In this document: one piece after another, positions 6,001-12,000 of the stretch
Layout of the letters: every line of letters starts with the position of its first letter
How positions within the stretch are numbered: position 1 is the first letter of the stretch
Source of the DNA: Vulcanimicrobiota bacterium
GTDB taxonomy: Bacteria > Vulcanimicrobiota > Vulcanimicrobiia > Vulcanimicrobiales > Vulcanimicrobiaceae
Direction: 5' to 3'
DNA: 26,926 bases
Assembly (NCBI GenBank): GCA_003135555.1
Contig: PLCF01000072.1
Span: 84,483-111,408 of the forward strand
Program-made: the position numbers

Positions 6001-9000
6001 CGTAGCGCTGTTGGGGCTGGAAGGACACCACCGCACCGAGCCGGTCGAGGAAGCGCCGCATCCCTGCGTCGCGCGTGCTGACCGCGAGGTCGCCCTGCAT
6101 TTCGACGGCGTGTTCGAGGATGAGCCGCGTGCCCTGAAACCACAGCGACGGCGGACGATCCTGCGCGCGCGCCGCGGGCGCGAAGCCGGCGCCGGCGACG
6201 GCCGCGATCAGTAAGCTAGAAACTCGAACGCGAAAGCGGTTCATCGAGCTCCAGGTGTCCTCCGGGTAGCGTGGCGACGCGGGCGCCGTCGATCCGCACC
6301 TTCACCGAGGTGATGCCGAGGTTCGGTTGCGTAAGTGTCCATACGAGCGCCTTGAACTCCGCCGACTCCGCGAACCCGCCTTGCGCCGAGGACGCGACGT
6401 CCTTAGAGATATCGACGTCTGCTATTGATCCCTGAACGTCGACGGCACGCACGCGCGTTCCCGCCGGAAACCGAATCGCGTCGGTCCCCGGGGGCGGGCC
6501 GGCGACGCACTGCGTGGCGGCGTAAAAGGCCACGCTGAGCCGGTCGCGCGCGTTCCCGAGGCTCACCCGCCACGGCACCAGCGTCGTTCCGTCGGCCTTT
6601 GCGTAGTAGACCGTGACCGCATCGCCGACGGCGTTCTGACGGTGTGTGGTGAACCACCATGCCGCAACGACCGCAGCCGCGAACAGCCCGACCAGCACCA
6701 AGGTGCGCGAGAATCGCATCTTGGATGGTCGCTATTCTGCGTGCTAGGCGTTACGCCCCTGACGGCGATAGGTGATCCGTCCGCGGGTGAGATCGTAGGG
6801 CGAGAGCTCCACGTCGACGTCGTCGCCGGGCGTGATGCGGATGCGGAAGCGGCGCAGCCGGCCGGCCAGGCTGGCCAGGATCGTGTGCCCGTTCTCGAGT
6901 TCCACCTTGAACGTCGAGCTGGGGAAGGTCTCGACGACGCGGCCGACCAGGCTCAGCGTGTCTTCTTTGACGACGGGGCTGAGCGGCTCGCGGCGCTTCT
7001 TGCCACCGCCGCCCTTGCGTCTGCGGGGAGGGGGAATGGTTACTCCTTCGATGATCGGGGCGGGGTGCGATTGGTCCGGGGGTTCGCGGCCGTAATCCGA
7101 TTCGCCCGCGACGGCGGGTCCCGGGGCGGCGCCGGGAACTTCCCCGAGGCGCTCCGGGTTATGGGTGGCGTCATGCTCACAGGTGCTATCGTGTTCGGAA
7201 TGGTCGGCGTCGCAGCCGGGTTTACTTGGGACTACTTCGCTAGCCGAGGCAAGTAAGCGCACGAGGCCCCGGCCGCGCCGCGCGGCCTCTTGACGCGGAC
7301 CTTACGTTCGCGATGGGCACCATTTGGGACAATCCTGTGTTAGAGTGAGCGAGCCGAACCGACGTAGGCGTCTTACGTTCGGCTGATAGTACGAGTCATG
7401 TCCCACGTGGTCTGGCGCTCAGGCGTTCTCCCGGTTCAGGTACATCGCACGTCTTCAAACCCCCCGACGCCGGAGTTCATATCGATGTACACTGACGAAA
7501 CCCTGAATTGCACCGACTGCAATGCCCCCTTCACGTTCTCAGCCGGAGAGCAAGAGTTCTTCGCCGCAAAGGGATTCACCAACAAGCCCAACCGTTGCCC
7601 GGATTGCCGTGCTGCTCGTAAGAGCCAGCGTGGCGGCAGCGGCGGCGGCGGCGGCGGCTCGTACGCCGGCGGCGGCTACGGCGGCGGCGGCGGCGCAAGC
7701 CGTCCGGCACGCGAGATGTTCCAAGCGACCTGCAGCGGATGCGGCAAAGTCGCGGAAGTCCCGTTCCAGCCCCGCGGCGACAAGCCGGTCTACTGCCGCG
7801 ACTGCTTCTCGCAGCGCCAATCGTATCGCTAACACCTAGCGACACACACGGAACGAGGCCCGGGGATCCGTCCCCGGGCTTCTTCTTTTAGGGGGACGTC
7901 GCCGAGGCGATCTCGAGCTTCCAGTCTTTCAGCGGCGTCGTTTCGAGTTGCAGGTTGTCGAGCAGCGCGCGCAGGCGCCGCGCCGCAGGCCCGCTGCCGC
8001 TGGTGCGCTCGCGCCTGAATGCGGGTTCCCAGGCTTGATACCACAGCCGCGCTTCGACGCGTAGCCGGGCCGGGTCGAGCGGCGTGTGCAGCGGTACGCG
8101 ATACGCGACGACCGCGCGGCCCTTGCCGTCGGCGTAGCGCGGATCGGTCTCGACGAACGCGCCTTCGGGCCGCGTCGCGACGAGCCAGTTCGCCGGCAAC
8201 GCGATCCCGCGCGGACCGTCTTTGCGCCAGCCCTGCGGCAGGAGCCGATTGTCTTTGAGGTGGTGGTCGCGCCGAATGAAGCTGGTGGTGAGGTCGCCTT
8301 CGCGATCTTGCACGAGCTCTTCGAAGATCTGCACGTCGTCGCTGCGCGTGATCGGCCGGCGCTCGTCGAAATGCTGCTGGTAGCGCTGCTTCCCGTCCGG
8401 GCCGCGCGTGAAGTACTCCGTCGGCAGCACGTCGCCGGGCGCCGCGCCTGCGACGATCTCGCCGTTCGCGTTGGTCGACCCGGACGCCCAGACGACGCTG
8501 CCGTCGGGAGCGACGACCTTGAGCTCGAGCCAGGCGCGGCGAAATCCCACTCCGCTGGGGAAGCGGTGGCCGGTAAGGTTGGTGACGCCGACGTCGGCGA
8601 CGAGCGTCCCGTTCTGGATGCGCGCCGCGAGGTCGACCGTCGCCGTCTTGTGCCGCGCCTGGTGCACGACGTTACCGATCGCGTCGTCGAGATCGGTCGA
8701 CGAGCCCGACATGTAGTCGTTCAGCCGAACGCCCAGCGCGTCGGAGTTGCGCGCAAAGGTGCGCAACAGGAATGCGTTGAGCCCGAGCAGCTCGTGGCGG
8801 CGGAAGCCCGTCTTGCGAAAGCGCACGTCGATCCCGTACAGCGGTGCACGATGCTCGGCTTGCGGGTAGGTCTGGTCCTGAACCAGCGCGATTTGCGTTT
8901 GGATCGCGGCCTGGTGGACGTCGAGGCGGTCGTTGTCGACGCCCGCGGGCATGTGACAGTCTTGGCACGAGCGCGCCCCGGCCAAGGGCTTGTACTCGGT

Positions 9001-12000
9001 TTGGAAGCGGCTGTTCGTCCACTCGACGTAGGTGTTCTGCTCGACGTCGTGCGCCATCGACGCGACGATCGGGTGAATCTTCGCCGGCCGGTCGACGACC
9101 GGAAGGTCGATCGAGTGACAGCTCGTGCAAAGCCGCGCCGACTTCGTGAGCGCGCTGAAGACGGGCTTCGCCCCGAGCGACTCGTTCATCGGATGCGCCG
9201 CGATGAGTTTGGTCTCGAACGGTCCCTGCAACTCGTCCGCGCGCCCGGTCGAAAAGAGGCCGGTGTTGCGGTGCGCCAGCACGAACGCCAGCGAGGTCTC
9301 CGCTTTGGTCTGCGTGATGTGGTGGCAGACCGTACAGCTGATGCCGTCGCGCGCGAGCCCGCCGAGGTGGAACTGCGGCGTCGCCGGGTCGGCTTGGAAG
9401 ACCCACCGCGCATCGAAGTGTGCGGACGCGCCGTGTTCGATTTCGTTGGTGCGTTTGCCCATCACGCCGTGGCAGCGCATGCAGGTATCGACGACTTGTT
9501 GTGCGAGCGTCGCGCGCGTACGCTGCGGGTGGTTGCCGGCGATCCGCCGCGCGGGGATCCGGTCGATGTATGCGAGCTCGCTCTCGAGCTGCGCGAAGAA
9601 CACCGGGTCGCGTCCCGCCAGTCCCATCGGCGACCAGCGCCATTCGCCGTACTCCGAGACGTTGACGCCGGCGGGGCCCGGCGGCGCCGCCGGCGGCGCC
9701 GAGTATGCCGGCGACGGCGTGAGCCACATCAGCGGCCCCGACGGCGGCCCCGACGCCGCGCTGTGACAGCCCATGCATTGGTCCGAGGTCAAGAACTGCG
9801 GCGGCAGCTTCGCGTGCAACTTCGCCGGCAGCGAATCGAGCGGCTCGGCCGGGAACGTCTGCATCGCGACGGGGCGCGCGTGCGACACGATCGGCGGGTG
9901 GACGGCGTTCTTCTCGTGCTCGGCATCAATCGGCGGGGTGGCGCGGGCCGACGGCGGCGGCGTGCGCCACGAATCGTCGACCTTGAAGGTCAGCGGCTCG
10001 CCCGGAAAGCCCGCGACGTTGTCGAGCGCCGCGAACGTGGCGGCAACGTTGGCCGACGCGTGGCAGCGCAGGCAGTACAGCCCGAAGCCCGCGTTGGGAT
10101 ATTGCGTGCGGGAGAACGTCATCGGCGGCGCCGTGTAGACCTCGGCCCAGAACCAGCCATCGCGCGACGCCGACGCGCGACGAATCATCACCGTCCAATC
10201 GGTCGGCTGGAGCGCGTCGCCGGTGCGGCCGTCGTAGGCTGCGGCCGGCGGCGGATACTGCTCCTTGATGATGACCGCGCCGTCGGGCGGGGCGCCGGTG
10301 CGGCCGTTGCGCAGCCAAGCCACGACCTCGGGCGAGTAGTAGACGCGCACCGCCGGGTGGGTGCCGTAGTACACGCCGTGCACGTACGGGCCGGTGTCGC
10401 GCACGTATTTGTCGACGCACCAGCCGATGCGGCGGTATCCGTACGTCCGCAGGTACGCGACCATCCTGCGCTCGATCGCGACCGGCTCGCCGGGCGGGAC
10501 GACGGCCGGCAATCGTAACGCCGCCGGGACCTCCGCGCGCGCCGTACGGGGGCACGGATCCGACAGGGTCGCCGCGACCGCGACGTCACGACCCGGGAAC
10601 ATGCCGCGCGCGGCCTCGACGCCCAACGGCGCCGAGCCGGCGACTGCGGCCAACACCAGCAGCCACGAACGCACGTTACAGGCCCTCCACGCCGCCGGTT
10701 CTCGCTAGATCACTTGGGATACAGGACGCGCGTCGTCGACGAGCGGTCGATCTCGGCGACGCGAGCGTAGGTCCGCCCGAGCACATCCATGCTGGGGTTC
10801 GTCACGCCGAACCACATACGCTCGTTCTTGAAGTGGTGCCAGAGATGGTACTTCTTGATCCAGCGGCCGAACGGCGTCCGCGGAACGAAGTCGATGTGGG
10901 CCACGTAGTGCACCCACTCGTACCACAACAAGCCCAGCACGCTGCCCAGCAGCAGCGCAGCGCTCAGCGCGAGATCGCGCGTGATGCCGTAGTAGATACC
11001 GAACGTCAGCGCAGCGACCGGAATCACGAACCAGACCGGCAGGAACAGCAGGCTCAGCTCGGCGGGCGTGATGTGGTGATCGTAGTGCAGCCGGTGCTGC
11101 AGGCGCAAGACGAACGCGTTCCGCTGCGGCGGCGCGTGGAACATGAACCGGTGCGTCGTGTACTCGGAAACGAAGAACACCAGCGCCCCGCCGGCGACGG
11201 CGACCAGGTTTGCGGCGGCGAAGCTCAGCCCGTGCGCGGCGAACAGCGCGATCAGCGCCGCCGCGAGCACCAGCAGCAGCGTGTTGCTGCCGTGGCGCAG
11301 GAAGCTCGCAAACGTCGTCATCAGCGCTCCTCCTCGGGCTTGCGCCGCGGCAGGGCGTACCACGCCGCGTCGCAGGCCCGGCGGTCGTCGTCGTCGAGCG
11401 TGATCTGCAGCGCTTGGAGCGAGTCGCGCAGCTGCTCGGCCCGGCTTGCGCCGACGATCGCCGCGGTCACGCCGGGCTGGTCGAGCACCCAGCGCAGCGC
11501 GACGTGGGTGATGCTCTTGCCGCGCGTGGCGACGTCGGCGGCGAGGCGCGCGACGACGTCGAGCTGCTCGTCCTGCCAGTACCGCTGCTGATACAGCGAG
11601 GCCGCGTTGCCCAGGGTGAAGCGCGTCCCTTCGCGCGGCTGCTCGCCGCGCTTGTACTTACCCGTCAGCATCCCGGCGGCAAGCGGGTTGAACACCACCG
11701 CGCCGACGCCGTGCGCCGCTGCGGCCGGCAGCAGCTCGGACTCGATCTGCCGGAACAAGAGGTTGTAGCGCGGCTGGACCGCGTCGAAGCGGATCGTCGC
11801 GCCGCGTTCGGCGGCCCACAGCGACGACATCATCTGCCACGCCGCGATGTTGCTGCACCCCGCATAGCGGATCTTTCCGGCGCGGCGCAGATCGTCGAAC
11901 GCCGACAGCGTCTCTTCGATCGGCGACTCGGGGTCCCAGCGATGGATGTAGTACAGGTCGATCCAGTCGGTCTTGAGCCGCCGCAGCGACGCGTCGCACG

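Follow-up and report, generated by a model that had tools for sequence, protein, structure and literature searches.

What might an exported protein do that joins a cytochrome P460-like head to five further c-type haem sites? This question is raised by a gene in the 26,926-nucleotide stretch of DNA from a peat-soil bacterium that was analysed here (the window). In a preliminary description, its product had been regarded as a hydroxylamine-oxidising enzyme wired by its own haems. The gene is an open reading frame of 928 amino acids with the start codon GTG, which is preceded by GGAGG about 11 nt upstream, and its GC3 of 0.89 agrees with the coding frame.

7888..10674, minus strand: whole gene of the exported hexahaem protein (stop codon 7888-7890)
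10612..10674, minus strand: putative Sec signal peptide, residues 1-21 (VRSWLLVLAAVAGSAPLGVEA), judged by eye

The N-terminus shows R2, a hydrophobic stretch L5-A12 and V-E-A at positions 19-21, and a pattern MRxxxL...A...A is also found in the consensus of the homologues. The first cysteines of the six CxxCH motifs are located at positions 201, 300, 398, 447, 516 and 570; coordinates, frame and motif positions given earlier were all reproduced. When the 98 contigs (3.57 Mb) were all scanned in six frames, only this gene contained at least three CxxCH motifs, which agrees with its designation as the genome's sole multihaem cytochrome. Two other frames possessed two motifs each, as expected from the earlier count, and represent DnaJ and a real dihaem cytochrome c.

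The N-terminal part was assigned by Pfam, AF2, Foldseek and VIA.

10000..10542, minus strand: cytochrome P460/c'-beta-fold head with haem 1, residues 45-225
10060..10074, minus strand: CLRCH, residues 201-205, attachment site of haem 1, which aligns with the CxxCH of P460 and is kept in 106 of 106 diverse relatives

Residues 110-208 matched the Pfam family Cytochrome_P460 (PF16694; E 1.7e-6, 28.8 bits). Match, E-value and score were as reported before, but the cut was not a relaxed one, as the score exceeds the curated cut-off of 27. Beside this, Paired_CXXCH_1 scored 29.5 bits, the MtrC/MtrF match stayed under its cut-off, and no HAO-type family appeared among the Pfam matches at E<=1. The AF2 model of the head alone (pLDDT 85.5, pTM 0.81) retrieved only P460/c'-beta structures at ranks 1-21 among the Foldseek matches listed. 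VIA yielded Z scores of 6.9-9.4 for 17 P460/c'-beta entries, and the next unrelated entry reached 3.5. When residues 62-235 were compared to the PDB by phmmer, the weak matches to 9hrk (E 0.0049) and 6hiu (E 0.0065) were found again, with K137 on K78 and D159 on D102; a profile built from 78 diverse relatives matched McP460 at E 1.6e-7 (33 bits). The modelled structure shows that the head has a genuine cytochrome P460/c'-beta fold, as had been proposed.

Within this fold, two residues are conserved throughout the family.

10264..10266, minus strand: K137, position of the haem cross-link lysine (McP460 K78; McCP-beta F61), from alignments and conservation
10357..10359, minus strand: H106, candidate distal cap or base, 31 residues before K137

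K137 was paired with McP460 K78 in three alignments and with McCP-beta F61 in the wide-profile one. It occurs in 36/36 homologues (down to 49% identity), 104/106 diverse and 63/63 closer relatives; the cross-link lysine is indeed kept, and the reported invariance of K137, D159 and all six haem sites down to 49% identity was confirmed (36/36). According to the passage concerned in PMC11928373, a lysine placed at the equivalent c'-beta position suffices for cross-link formation. H106 is conserved in 104 of the 106 diverse and 62 of the 63 closer relatives, and its distance to K137 lies within the range of 28-33 residues between cap and Lys equivalent in Table 2 of PMC11928373. The adjacent residues 101-105 are inside the predicted interface of head and body. 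Alternatively, H106 could be a haem ligand of the head and close the site.

The distal carboxylate was said to be kept as well, which is not borne out by the best-scoring alignment.

10192..10200, minus strand: D159-W160-T161, with T161 as the likely equivalent of the carboxylate position and D159 as a clade-specific Asp

The wide-family profile (33 bits, E 1.6e-7) places T161 on McP460 D102 and McCP-beta G82, that is, at the Glu96/Asp102 position, with D159 two residues upstream. The alignments that pair D159 with D102, pairwise phmmer and a narrower profile, reach only 17-20 bits, and the narrower profile, in which M163 falls on M104, arrives at this pairing only by a two-residue gap within the strand. 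Furthermore, the wide profile recovers the structure-derived McCP-beta equivalences Phe61 (K137) and Gly82 (T161) in Table 2 of PMC11928373. Among the 106 diverse relatives, column 159 contains G (44), S (20), D (14), gaps (10), A (6) and E (3), and column 161 contains T (49), A (37), S (8) and V (7). Most of the family thus lacks an acidic residue at position 159 (present in 17/106), whereas D159 is found in 40 of the 63 closer, genome-derived relatives (three named phyla) and in all 36 close homologues. Thr161 most likely replaces the canonical carboxylate needed for turnover of NH2OH, and Asp159 is restricted to a subfamily.

Because T161 probably occupies the carboxylate position and D159 is clade-specific, the designation hydroxylamine oxidase is not established. 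In the sections of PMC11928373 and PMC6457333 that deal with this residue, NsP460, a cross-linked P460 that lacks the carboxylate, takes up NH2OH and NO as ligands, but turnover of NH2OH is absent, and the geometry is strict, as NeP460 Glu96Asp and NsP460 Ala131Asp are both inactive. Measured by this published rule, the proposed route from hydroxylamine to NO or N2O was a guess rather than an inference. An enzyme that forms NO or N2O from NH2OH with Lys137 and Asp159 as canonical P460 pair and a five-haem wire is therefore considered unlikely, even if the pairwise alignment and the conservation of D159 in the clade point to it. D159 and T161 would lie on one face of the predicted strand 159-165, and D159 together with H106 would mimic the Asp/His pair that touches NH2OH in HAO, as described in the relevant part of PMC6457333. 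The predicted docking and the logic of the haem chain, described below, would fit here, too. On the other hand, no encoded source of NH2OH was found: the search for ammonia monooxygenase (AMO) gave no match in the source genome, as stated before, nor in five carrier genomes that are 94-100% complete, and likewise none in the controls. NirK-like matches in these six genomes were far under the cut-off (53.6 vs 296.3 bits), so that no NirK was found in them, and the search for NosZ was without match in the five carriers and also in the control genomes.

The remainder of the protein consists of a linker and a pentahaem body.

9805..9999, minus strand: Pro-rich low-confidence linker from head to body, residues 226-290 (pLDDT <50 at 234-264 and 283-289)
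8695..9804, minus strand: mainly helical five-haem domain, PHC-type (c552-like), residues 291-660, from matches to 5ze8
9763-9777, 9469-9483, 9322-9336, 9115-9129 and 8953-8967, minus strand: body CxxCH motifs, all five in 106/106
7891..8694, minus strand: stem of the PHC module, an Ig-like beta-sandwich that contains insertions, residues 661-928, within the 5ze8 alignment

The linker is partly conserved (D233, W236, P275, D280). The only PDB sequence match of the full-length protein by phmmer was the pentahaem cytochrome c552 5ze8 (E 6.8e-7), and no P460 was among the results. Foldseek matched the body to the same structure (E 1e-9, TM 0.66), and VIA aligned 349 of 385 residues with the model of residues 291-928 (Z 18.6, rmsd 3.0). 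For residues 675-928, matches to GH2-type Ig domains reached Z scores of about 7-7.8. These results show that residues 291-928 are a complete PHC cytochrome of the c552/ExtKL/MccSep type with an Ig-like stem; what had been described as five haem sites and a separate C-terminal domain of about 350 residues is together one known module. Candidates for sixth haem ligands in the 106 relatives are H627, H703 (in GHRFPSG within the stem) and M496 (106 each), M350 and M575 (103 each) and M316 (98). These conserved His and Met residues would suffice to give each of the five body haems a sixth ligand, and no non-motif Cys of the body is conserved in the 106 relatives. With ligands for all five haems and no such Cys, the body is probably a relay rather than a second active site.

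It might also be supposed that the protein works through its PHC body, which would be an enzyme, as is the polysulfide reductase MccSep, or a carrier of electrons to external acceptors, and that the head is an accessory haem for entry or exit of electrons or a gas sensor gating the chain. Without the head, the body corresponds to an entire cytochrome that exists as a separate protein. Head-less look-alikes of 545-670 aa in the Atlas, which are leads only, cover about residues 260-928 (TM 0.83-0.88), some of them in Bacteroidota clusters with a secretion tail. Moreover, many polar residues of the body are invariant (R355, D356, E366, R442, E545, Q546, T548, E551, R712, R713) and could form a catalytic or ion site. 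This assumption is nevertheless improbable: beside the missing Cys, no Sec is present at the site of the MccSep type, because there is no in-frame stop, and against the NCBIfam ExtKL model the protein reaches 14.3 bits, with a cut-off of 250. The six-coordination of all haems, for which the conserved ligands suffice, likewise speaks against it, and the cross-link Lys found in 104/106 relatives would be superfluous for a haem that only transfers electrons. In addition, no conserved porin or outer-membrane partner lies next to the gene; a BBP7 porin is close by in only 5 loci, all from Pirellulales.

The predicted docking of the head on the body gave an ipSAE of 0.75 vs 0.00 for the best control, with at least 65% of the contacts in common between runs and a partner pLDDT of at least 84. 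The ipSAE mark is reached by 116/157 solved complexes and 2/215 mismatched pairs, counts that are only roughly valid here because an own alignment was used. The contacts with the lowest error connect residues 202-209 of the head (CLRCH 201-205) with residues 302-303 (CMGCH 300-304), 494-499 and 608-610 of the body. The interface exceeds the remaining residues in conservation only on the head side (0.53 vs 0.41, matched by 52/5000 permutations), while the difference on the body side is weak (0.52 vs 0.47, 797/5000). The haem site of the head is predicted to pack against PHC haem 1. This placement of the head CxxCH segment on the first CxxCH of the body backs the self-wired design suggested previously.

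The family is large. Among 8000 scored sequences, 2566 homologues were counted at E<=0.001, which replaces the earlier figure of 2920 at E<=1e-10; in an exhaustive search, the number of cluster representatives was 1921 at E<=1e-3, 1166 at E<=1e-10 and 349 at E<=1e-30. Of 148 further cluster representatives (P0122-P0269), 105 have six CxxCH motifs in a length of 830 aa or more. The eight head-less rows examined, of 11 short or truncated rows listed, begin mid-sequence and lack a signal peptide, and fusion of head and body is obligatory in this family, as judged from these sequences. The fusion of a P460-type head with a PHC cytochrome is real and widespread, with hosts in Eremiobacterota, Acidobacteriota, Verrucomicrobiota and Planctomycetota. 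Its distribution is patchy and accessory (24 of 201 genomes in the phylum sample), and no neighbour genes are conserved across phyla, in agreement with the earlier remark that the neighbourhood is uninformative.

Catalysis at the P460 haem is fairly probable; oxidation of NH2OH, a reaction with NO and one with another substrate share this probability about equally, and each is doubtful if taken singly. Our tentative explanation is an exported, self-wired P460 oxidoreductase that oxidises a small nitrogen compound. The head provides one c-haem on a beta-sheet fold together with the lysine that cross-links the porphyrin in P460s. NO, NH2OH or a related species would reach the open distal side of this low-potential haem and be oxidised there, and protons may be relayed by a pocket of another kind, formed by invariant His106 and, in this clade, also Asp159. 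PHC haem 1 would then receive the electrons, and the five haems of the body would hand them on as a branched relay, to be taken over by a soluble c-type cytochrome and by aerobic oxidases. Possible acceptors encoded in the genome are two haem-copper oxidases and one dihaem cytochrome c; one cytochrome c maturation gene is also present. Since docking of the head on PHC haem 1 is predicted, which in MccSep is proposed as the solvent-exposed entry point of electrons in the portion of bioRxiv 10.1101/2025.11.18.688581 concerned, the P460 haem would be the sixth and terminal member of the chain.

Electrons might also flow in the reverse direction, from the respiratory chain via the PHC module to the head haem, in order to reduce or detoxify NO, nitrite, peroxide or O2. 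The c'-beta fold also binds NO, and NeCP-beta is peroxidase-like, as mentioned in PMC11928373; PHC modules of cable bacteria are fused to another ligand-binding haem domain (described in PMC11976967), electrons come in at haem 1 of MccSep, and the patchy distribution would suit a stress or detoxification gene. This direction is quite improbable, however, as a haem cross-linked through the conserved Lys is expected to have a potential of about -400 mV, which makes it hard to reduce and tied to oxidative chemistry (in the account of PMC6457333), and the cross-link reportedly blocks peroxidase-like activity (PMC11928373, same context). Furthermore, haem 1 of MccSep is an entry and not a catalytic end.

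Cytochrome P460 (CytL; McP460 6hiu/9hrk, NeP460 2je2, NsP460 6amg) has the fold in common with the head, as well as the CxxCH at the C-terminal domain end and the Lys at the cross-link position; in the best alignment, the Glu96/Asp102 position of the head is without a carboxylate, as in NsP460. Known P460s are single-haem chains of 135-196 residues, mainly dimeric according to PMC11928373, and have a separate electron acceptor, whereas here the head belongs to a chain of 928 aa, in which its docking on a fused pentahaem module is predicted. A cap residue Phe or Arg is not evident in the head, where invariant His106 is nearby instead. The P460 sequences presented in that review derive from proteobacteria, in contrast to the hosts of the hexahaem protein. 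Cytochromes c'-beta (McCP-beta 6hih, TtCP-beta 7ead) show an equally good fold score (Z 7.9-9.4), but possess Phe or Met at the position of Lys137 (table in PMC11928373, wide-profile alignment), and in sequence they match less well (E 0.02-0.04 vs 1.6e-7 for McP460 with the wide profile).

The body resembles the Thermochromatium tepidum c552 (5ze8), to which no function is assigned in the passage of PMC11976967 concerned, in that a helical domain with five haems precedes an Ig-like domain, and in the motifs CQxCHMP and NL..H..P.G; it is about 250 residues larger due to insertions and additionally carries the P460 head. MccSep, a pentahaem selenoprotein polysulfide reductase of Geobacter, and ExtKL share the PHC architecture of an alpha-helical five-haem cap and an Ig-like stem, but the hexahaem protein lacks Sec as well as any conserved Cys ligand of a haem. 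Bis-His ligation is reported for MccSep; as the body has only two invariant non-motif His and four conserved Met residues, its ligation may differ. The lPHCtX proteins of cable bacteria likewise combine a PHC module and a ligand-binding haem domain in one polypeptide, and are set apart by the description in PMC11976967, in which the added domain is a truncated haemoglobin and not a P460 fold. Octahaem HAO is similar in idea, since a cross-linked catalytic haem of P460 type, with a distal Asp/His pair, terminates a multihaem relay (as outlined in PMC6457333), but its fold is unrelated, its haems number eight, and the cross-link is made by a Tyr of a neighbouring subunit (as noted in PMC8042395). 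The design of the P460-PHC fusion is apparently new to description.

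The hexahaem protein is made up of a cytochrome P460-type head (residues 45-225), a linker (226-290) and a body (291-928) of the pentahaem cytochrome (PHC) type. It is encoded as follows:

Window 7888-10674, minus strand: hexahaem gene, an open reading frame of 928 codons with a GTG start

A GGAGG sequence is located about 11 nt upstream of the GTG start. With a GC3 of 0.89, the frame is in line with what is usual for genes of this window, which has 67-71% GC. The N-terminus of the protein (VRSWLLVLAAVAGSAPLGVEA), judged by eye, resembles a Sec signal peptide. CxxCH motifs start at residues 201, 300, 398, 447, 516 and 570. 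In a six-frame scan of the whole genome (3.57 Mb, 98 contigs, 84% complete) no other frame showed three or more of these motifs; two further frames with two motifs each encode DnaJ and a true dihaem cytochrome c. The six haem sites and the sole multihaem frame reported in the preliminary description were thus confirmed, and its Pfam and PDB figures for this protein were reproduced exactly.

A phmmer search of the PDB with the full-length protein yielded 5ze8, the Thermochromatium tepidum pentahaem cytochrome c552, as the sole match (E 6.8e-7); the P460 entries were not matched by this query and appear when the head is searched separately. A wide-family profile matched 5ze8 with an E-value of 2.9e-9. 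The same structure was retrieved with the full-length model (pLDDT 73.6, pTM 0.69), both by Foldseek (E 1e-9, TM 0.66 by target) and by VIA-align (Z 18.6; 349 of 385 residues aligned with an rmsd of 3.0 A; model residues 291-928), and residues 675-928 matched GH2-type Ig-like domains (Z about 7-7.8). Residues 291-928 as a whole therefore form one known PHC module, consisting of a five-haem helical domain and an Ig-like stem. The preliminary description had listed five further haem sites and a C-terminal domain of about 350 residues, which it left unexplained; together they form a single module of the 5ze8 type. The Geobacter proteins ExtKL and MccSep and the pentahaem cytochromes of cable bacteria have also been assigned to the PHC family (PMC11976967; bioRxiv 10.1101/2025.11.18.688581).

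An MccSep-type enzyme function of the body was rejected, because outside the motifs the body lacks a cysteine conserved to at least 70%, such as the Cys-ligated haem 2 of the MccSep type would require, because the gene has no in-frame stop for selenocysteine, and because the ExtKL model NF040886 scored 14.3 bits against a cut-off of 250. As candidate sixth ligands, H627, H703 and M496 are each present in all of 106 full-length sequences (the query and 105 cluster representatives at 50% identity), M350 and M575 in 103 and M316 in 98 of them; H627 and H703 are the only invariant histidines of the body outside the motifs. These residues would be enough for five six-coordinate relay haems, and they hint at mixed His/His and His/Met ligation, which may differ from the bis-His pattern of four relay haems in MccSep. 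A different explanation would be that the PHC body itself is catalytic or takes part in extracellular electron transfer, while the head is an accessory or sensor domain.

The Pfam family Cytochrome_P460 (PF16694) matched residues 110-208 with 28.8 bits, a narrow margin over the curated cut-off of 27, and the hexahaem protein was the sole match (28.3 bits) when the genome was scanned with this family. An AlphaFold2 model of the head by itself, built for residues 40-275 with a 78-row alignment, was confident (pLDDT 85.5, pTM 0.81). All Foldseek matches of this model through rank 21 were cytochromes P460 or c'-beta (probability 0.85-1.00; TM by target 0.39-0.64), and the next match had an E-value of 0.79. 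With VIA-align, 17 P460/c'-beta entries reached Z-scores of 6.9-9.4 (rmsd 3.2-4.3 over 115-142 residues) compared to 3.5 for the best unrelated chain; because of this difference, the P460/c'-beta superfamily fold is a solid assignment for the modelled head. Proteins of this superfamily bind their haem through one CxxCH close to the C-terminus of the domain, its histidine being the proximal ligand, and this was also found here: the head motif CLRCH (201-205), kept in 106 of 106 sequences, pairs in the alignments with the CxxCH of Methylococcus cytochrome P460 (McP460; 6hiu, 9hrk) and of Methylococcus cytochrome c'-beta (McCP-beta). P460 and c'-beta are not separable by fold alone; the discriminator is the porphyrin cross-link lysine.

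K137 was placed on the cross-link Lys78 of McP460 by the pairwise alignment (E 0.005), by a 36-row profile (E 0.007) and by the 78-row wide-family profile (E 1.6e-7, 33 bits), and the last of these also placed it on Phe61 of McCP-beta, which is listed as the structural equivalent of the cross-link lysine (PMC11928373, Table 2). This lysine is shared by all 36 close homologues, by 104 of the 106 full-length sequences and by all 63 full-length genome-derived relatives. The earlier claim of a haem-crosslinking lysine in the head agrees with these alignments, and judged from sequence the head would belong to cytochrome P460 proper, as opposed to c'-beta. According to the P460 review, a lysine at this position of the fold always forms the cross-link, given peroxide or O2 (PMC11928373).

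The preliminary description also considered the distal carboxylate to be kept, with D159 as the equivalent of Asp102 of McP460. This assignment was not borne out: the pairwise alignment that pairs the two residues reached only 19.9 bits, and in the best alignment, that of the 78-row profile, the family strand W-T-V-M-V-K/R-D lies on A-D-F-M-V-K-D of McP460, so that Thr161 and not D159 falls on Asp102. The same profile placed Thr161 on Gly82 of McCP-beta, the carboxylate-equivalent position (PMC11928373). The 36-row profile had the same strand register (M163 on M104) and paired the two aspartates only via a two-residue gap inside the strand. Among the 106 relatives, column 161 is occupied by Thr (49), Ala (37), Ser (8) and Val (7), and column 159 by Gly (44), Ser (20), Asp (14), a gap (10), Ala (6) and Glu (3). 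D159 occurs in 40 of 63 closer genome-derived relatives, distributed as follows:

Table. Occurrence of D159 in closer genome-derived relatives, by phylum
Vulcanimicrobiota (Eremiobacterota): 13 of 13
Acidobacteriota: 16 of 26
Verrucomicrobiota: 6 of 6
Relatives without a phylum name: 5 of 5
Planctomycetota: 0 of 10

The Glu96/Asp102 distal carboxylate of the NH2OH-oxidizing NeP460/McP460 type is most probably absent from the head, an assignment which a solved structure could overturn. A shift of the carboxylate from position 159 to 166 was considered and rejected, as an acidic residue at 166 occurs with and without D159 and neither is present in 32 of 106 relatives. In NsP460, the haem is cross-linked and the carboxylate is lacking; this protein binds NH2OH and NO without turnover of NH2OH (PMC11928373, PMC6457333). 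With the cross-link lysine position filled and Thr161 at the carboxylate position, the head therefore resembles NsP460 by the published rule. His106 is kept family-wide (104 of 106) and is located 31 residues before K137, and the spacing between cap residue and lysine is 28-33 in six solved proteins (PMC11928373). The cap above the haem iron is Phe or Arg in the superfamily. By the spacing to the lysine, H106 or R110 (Arg in 65 of 106) are candidates for the cap, a region which the sequence alignments stop short of. His106 could act as a base, like the histidine of the distal Asp/His pair of HAO (PMC6457333), or as an iron ligand.

For docking, head (45-235) and body (285-928) were supplied as separate chains, each with a 36-row alignment. 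The complex reached an ipSAE of 0.75 (runs 0.78, 0.75 and 0.69) versus 0.00 in all three controls, with at least 65% of the contacts in common between runs and a partner pLDDT of at least 84. Of 157 solved complexes 116 reach the ipSAE mark, as do 2 of 215 mismatched pairs; these counts give only a rough calibration because a custom alignment of our own was used. The lowest-error contacts connect head residues 202-209 with body residues 302-303 (within CMGCH 300-304), 494-499 (around the invariant M496) and 608-610; because of the contacts between 202-209 and 302-303, the haem-attachment segments of the head and of the first body haem touch each other in the model. The docking model thus supports binding of the head to the body, and it predicts that PHC haem 1 is where the P460 haem rests. 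Haem 1 of MccSep is solvent-exposed and is the proposed entry point of electrons (bioRxiv 10.1101/2025.11.18.688581). On the head side, interface residues show a higher conservation than the remaining ones (0.53 vs 0.41; reached by 52 of 5000 permutations); on the body side, the difference is indistinguishable from chance (0.52 vs 0.47; 797 of 5000).

The combination of both modules is widespread. At least 830 amino acids and six CxxCH motifs were found in 105 of 148 further cluster representatives. Eight head-less rows, inspected among the 11 short or truncated ones printed, all begin mid-sequence and look like fragments, so that they were rejected as head-less family members; going by these sequences, the fusion looks obligatory in the family. 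An exhaustive search gave 1921, 1166 and 349 cluster representatives (50% identity) at E-values up to 1e-3, 1e-10 and 1e-30, respectively, and at least 585 stretches of a species-genome collection encode a relative (585 of the 600 pattern-matching stretches listed). The best 79 loci, all from MAGs, belong to Eremiobacterota/Vulcanimicrobiota, Acidobacteriota (Blastocatellia, Thermoanaerobaculia, Bryobacterales, Vicinamibacterales), Verrucomicrobiota (Chthoniobacterales), Planctomycetota (Pirellulales) and a few others. Within the phylum of the window the distribution is patchy: of 201 genomes sampled, 24 carry the gene (19 of the 170 with high quality). It is present in 7 of the 8 other genomes assigned to the window's genus, in all 5 of a second genus and in 3 of 44 of a third. 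In one genome of the window's genus (G117:C4:479178-481920) the gene is represented by two adjoining frames (profile positions 16-710 and 711-912), which suggests a frameshift or an assembly error in that genome.

DNA nearly identical to the stretch (at least 0.90 of words) was detected in peat metagenomes of three studies, one of which is possibly the source, and no RNA runs were listed among the matching datasets. For ten diverse representatives, the cluster entries came from MAGs or metagenomes throughout, and no cultured carrier was among them. Database labels of members read 'hypothetical protein', 'mono/diheme cytochrome c family protein' or 'cytochrome c553'; the label 'cytochrome P460 family protein', pointed out before, does exist and is rare. 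The Protein Atlas additionally lists candidate free-standing body-only look-alikes (545-670 amino acids, TM 0.83-0.88 by row, query residues about 260-928), which occur in Acidobacteriota, Planctomycetota, Myxococcota and Pseudomonadota. Clusters from Bacteroidota (642-662 amino acids, TM by row 0.74-0.76) carry Por_Secre_tail in 47-60% of their members, which hints at extracellular versions of the pentahaem module.

The following features surround the hexahaem gene:

Window 6744-7262, minus strand: open reading frame of 172 amino acids with an IF-1 domain only at residues 106-166
Window 7398-7832, plus strand: protein of 144 amino acids with two treble-clef zinc-finger domains (zf_Tbcl, zf_Tbcl_2), convergent with the hexahaem gene
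Window 10710-12319, minus strand: fatty-acid-hydroxylase-family gene, ending 35 nt upstream of the hexahaem gene
Window 14931-19034, minus strand: Lhr-type large helicase of 1367 amino acids with DEAD, Helicase_C, DEAD_assoc and Lhr winged-helix domains
Window 19036-22059, plus strand: ResIII/DEAD helicase-type open reading frame of 1007 amino acids, covering a low-GC stretch at 20001-22000

The fatty-acid-hydroxylase-family gene overlaps an aldo/keto reductase gene, and both lie on the same strand as the hexahaem gene; because of this arrangement and the 35-nt spacing, co-transcription is possible. A gene of this family is located near the hexahaem gene in only 8 of 79 loci. As stated previously, the neighbouring genes give no hint of a functional partner, and none of them is conserved across phyla among the 79 related loci. 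The commonest neighbour clusters are present in at most 15 of these loci and reflect local synteny within Eremiobacterota, where an amidase, the Lhr helicase (15 of 79 loci), zf_Tbcl (10 of 79, all closer relatives) and FA_hydroxylase recur. Seven planctomycete-labelled loci of the Pirellulales type (L059, L060, L063, L065, L066, L067 and L070) encode a cNMP-binding/POPDC-like protein of about 254 amino acids directly after the hexahaem gene on the same strand. Five of these loci also encode a BBP7 beta-barrel porin on the other strand, at a distance of two genes.

Beside these neighbours, the Lhr-type helicase scored 1391 bits on the PADLOC model of DpdJ, which is Lhr-like. The only low-GC stretch of the window falls within 20001-22000 (GC 0.57 vs 0.66-0.71 elsewhere). 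The 1007-amino-acid open reading frame showed weak matches to the helicase portions of restriction enzymes of types IV and I and to PbeA (E 1e-12 to 1e-5) and may be an acquired defence-type gene. The listed start of the IF-1 open reading frame is probably too far upstream. No tRNA was found in the window.

Two haem-copper oxidases are present in the genome, together with one dihaem cytochrome c and a gene for cytochrome c maturation. AMO was detected neither in this genome nor in five 94-100% complete carriers, and NosZ was not detected in these five; both are weak blanks, because the searches matched in no control genome. For NirK, the genome and the five carriers gave only sub-threshold multicopper matches.

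Most simply, the modelled hexahaem protein would be a self-wired oxidoreductase whose catalytic site is the P460 haem, because this ligand-binding haem with its cross-link lysine is predicted to dock on the entry haem of the relay, and because the protein appears to be exported and needs no conserved partner. A substrate bound at the P460 haem would be oxidized there, and the electrons would pass from the head through the five-haem PHC relay to the aerobic chain. This direction is favoured because the potentials of P460 haems lie near -400 mV and because such haems oxidize the bound substrate (PMC6457333, PMC11928373); in the reverse direction, a reduction or detoxification would take place at the head.

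The preliminary description took the protein for a canonical hydroxylamine oxidase. The conserved K137 would fit such an enzyme; against it stand Thr161 at the carboxylate position and the absence of an encoded NH2OH source, and because of both, hydroxylamine appears weakened as the substrate. NO or another small nitrogen compound, bound in a His106-based pocket (plus Asp159 in the clade that has it), is as likely as hydroxylamine. In this context, Smith et al. proposed that P460s without the carboxylate are 'tuned for different substrates' (PMC6457333).

If the self-wired reading is extended, the family might represent a new multihaem P460 class with a Lys-cross-linked haem, a His/Thr(/Asp) pocket and its own five-haem relay, by which non-nitrifying bacteria gain respiratory electrons from nitrogen intermediates leaked by nitrifiers. 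We consider this rather improbable. Candidate intermediates are hydroxylamine or NO, the latter being oxidized to nitrite, and the hosts would be abundant Eremiobacterota, Acidobacteriota, Verrucomicrobiota and Planctomycetota of soil and peat. If true, NO and N2O would each have a sink or source that has so far stayed hidden. Metagenome surveys use cytochrome P460 as a marker for the conversion of hydroxylamine to N2O, and one scores any PF16694 gene in this way (PMC9938248). Such surveys would count the hexahaem family as hydroxylamine-to-N2O potential without noticing the difference: the family has the PF16694 domain, lacks the canonical catalytic carboxylate and differs strongly in architecture from the marker P460. 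It is also large, with hosts in phyla which dominate soils and peat. The identity of the substrate would tell whether these heterotrophs join the turnover of NO, NH2OH or N2O, and would provide bioinorganic chemistry with a natural relay-coupled P460 haem with a new second sphere.

Both modules, the P460 head and the PHC body, are already known. A fusion of P460 with a pentahaem or other multihaem domain was not found described in a full-text literature search; in the 2025 P460 review, whose sequences come from proteobacteria, no P460-pentahaem fusion was found and the terms 'fused' and 'domain architecture' do not appear (PMC11928373). The fusion is of real interest to specialists in the nitrogen cycle and in multihaem proteins. 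In cable bacteria, the PHC module is fused to truncated haemoglobin, another ligand-binding haem domain (PMC11976967). Octahaem HAO possesses eight c-haems and its own fold, whereas the hexahaem protein has six CxxCH motifs; the HAO family is absent from its Pfam matches at E-values up to 1, and HAO structures are absent from the listed Foldseek and VIA-align matches. Methanotrophs obtain no energy from NH2OH via P460, as the electron-transfer machinery is missing (PMC11928373). The P460-PHC fusion supplies such machinery in one polypeptide and, if it does form a new class, would add a third architecture to the two represented by octahaem HAO and single-haem P460.
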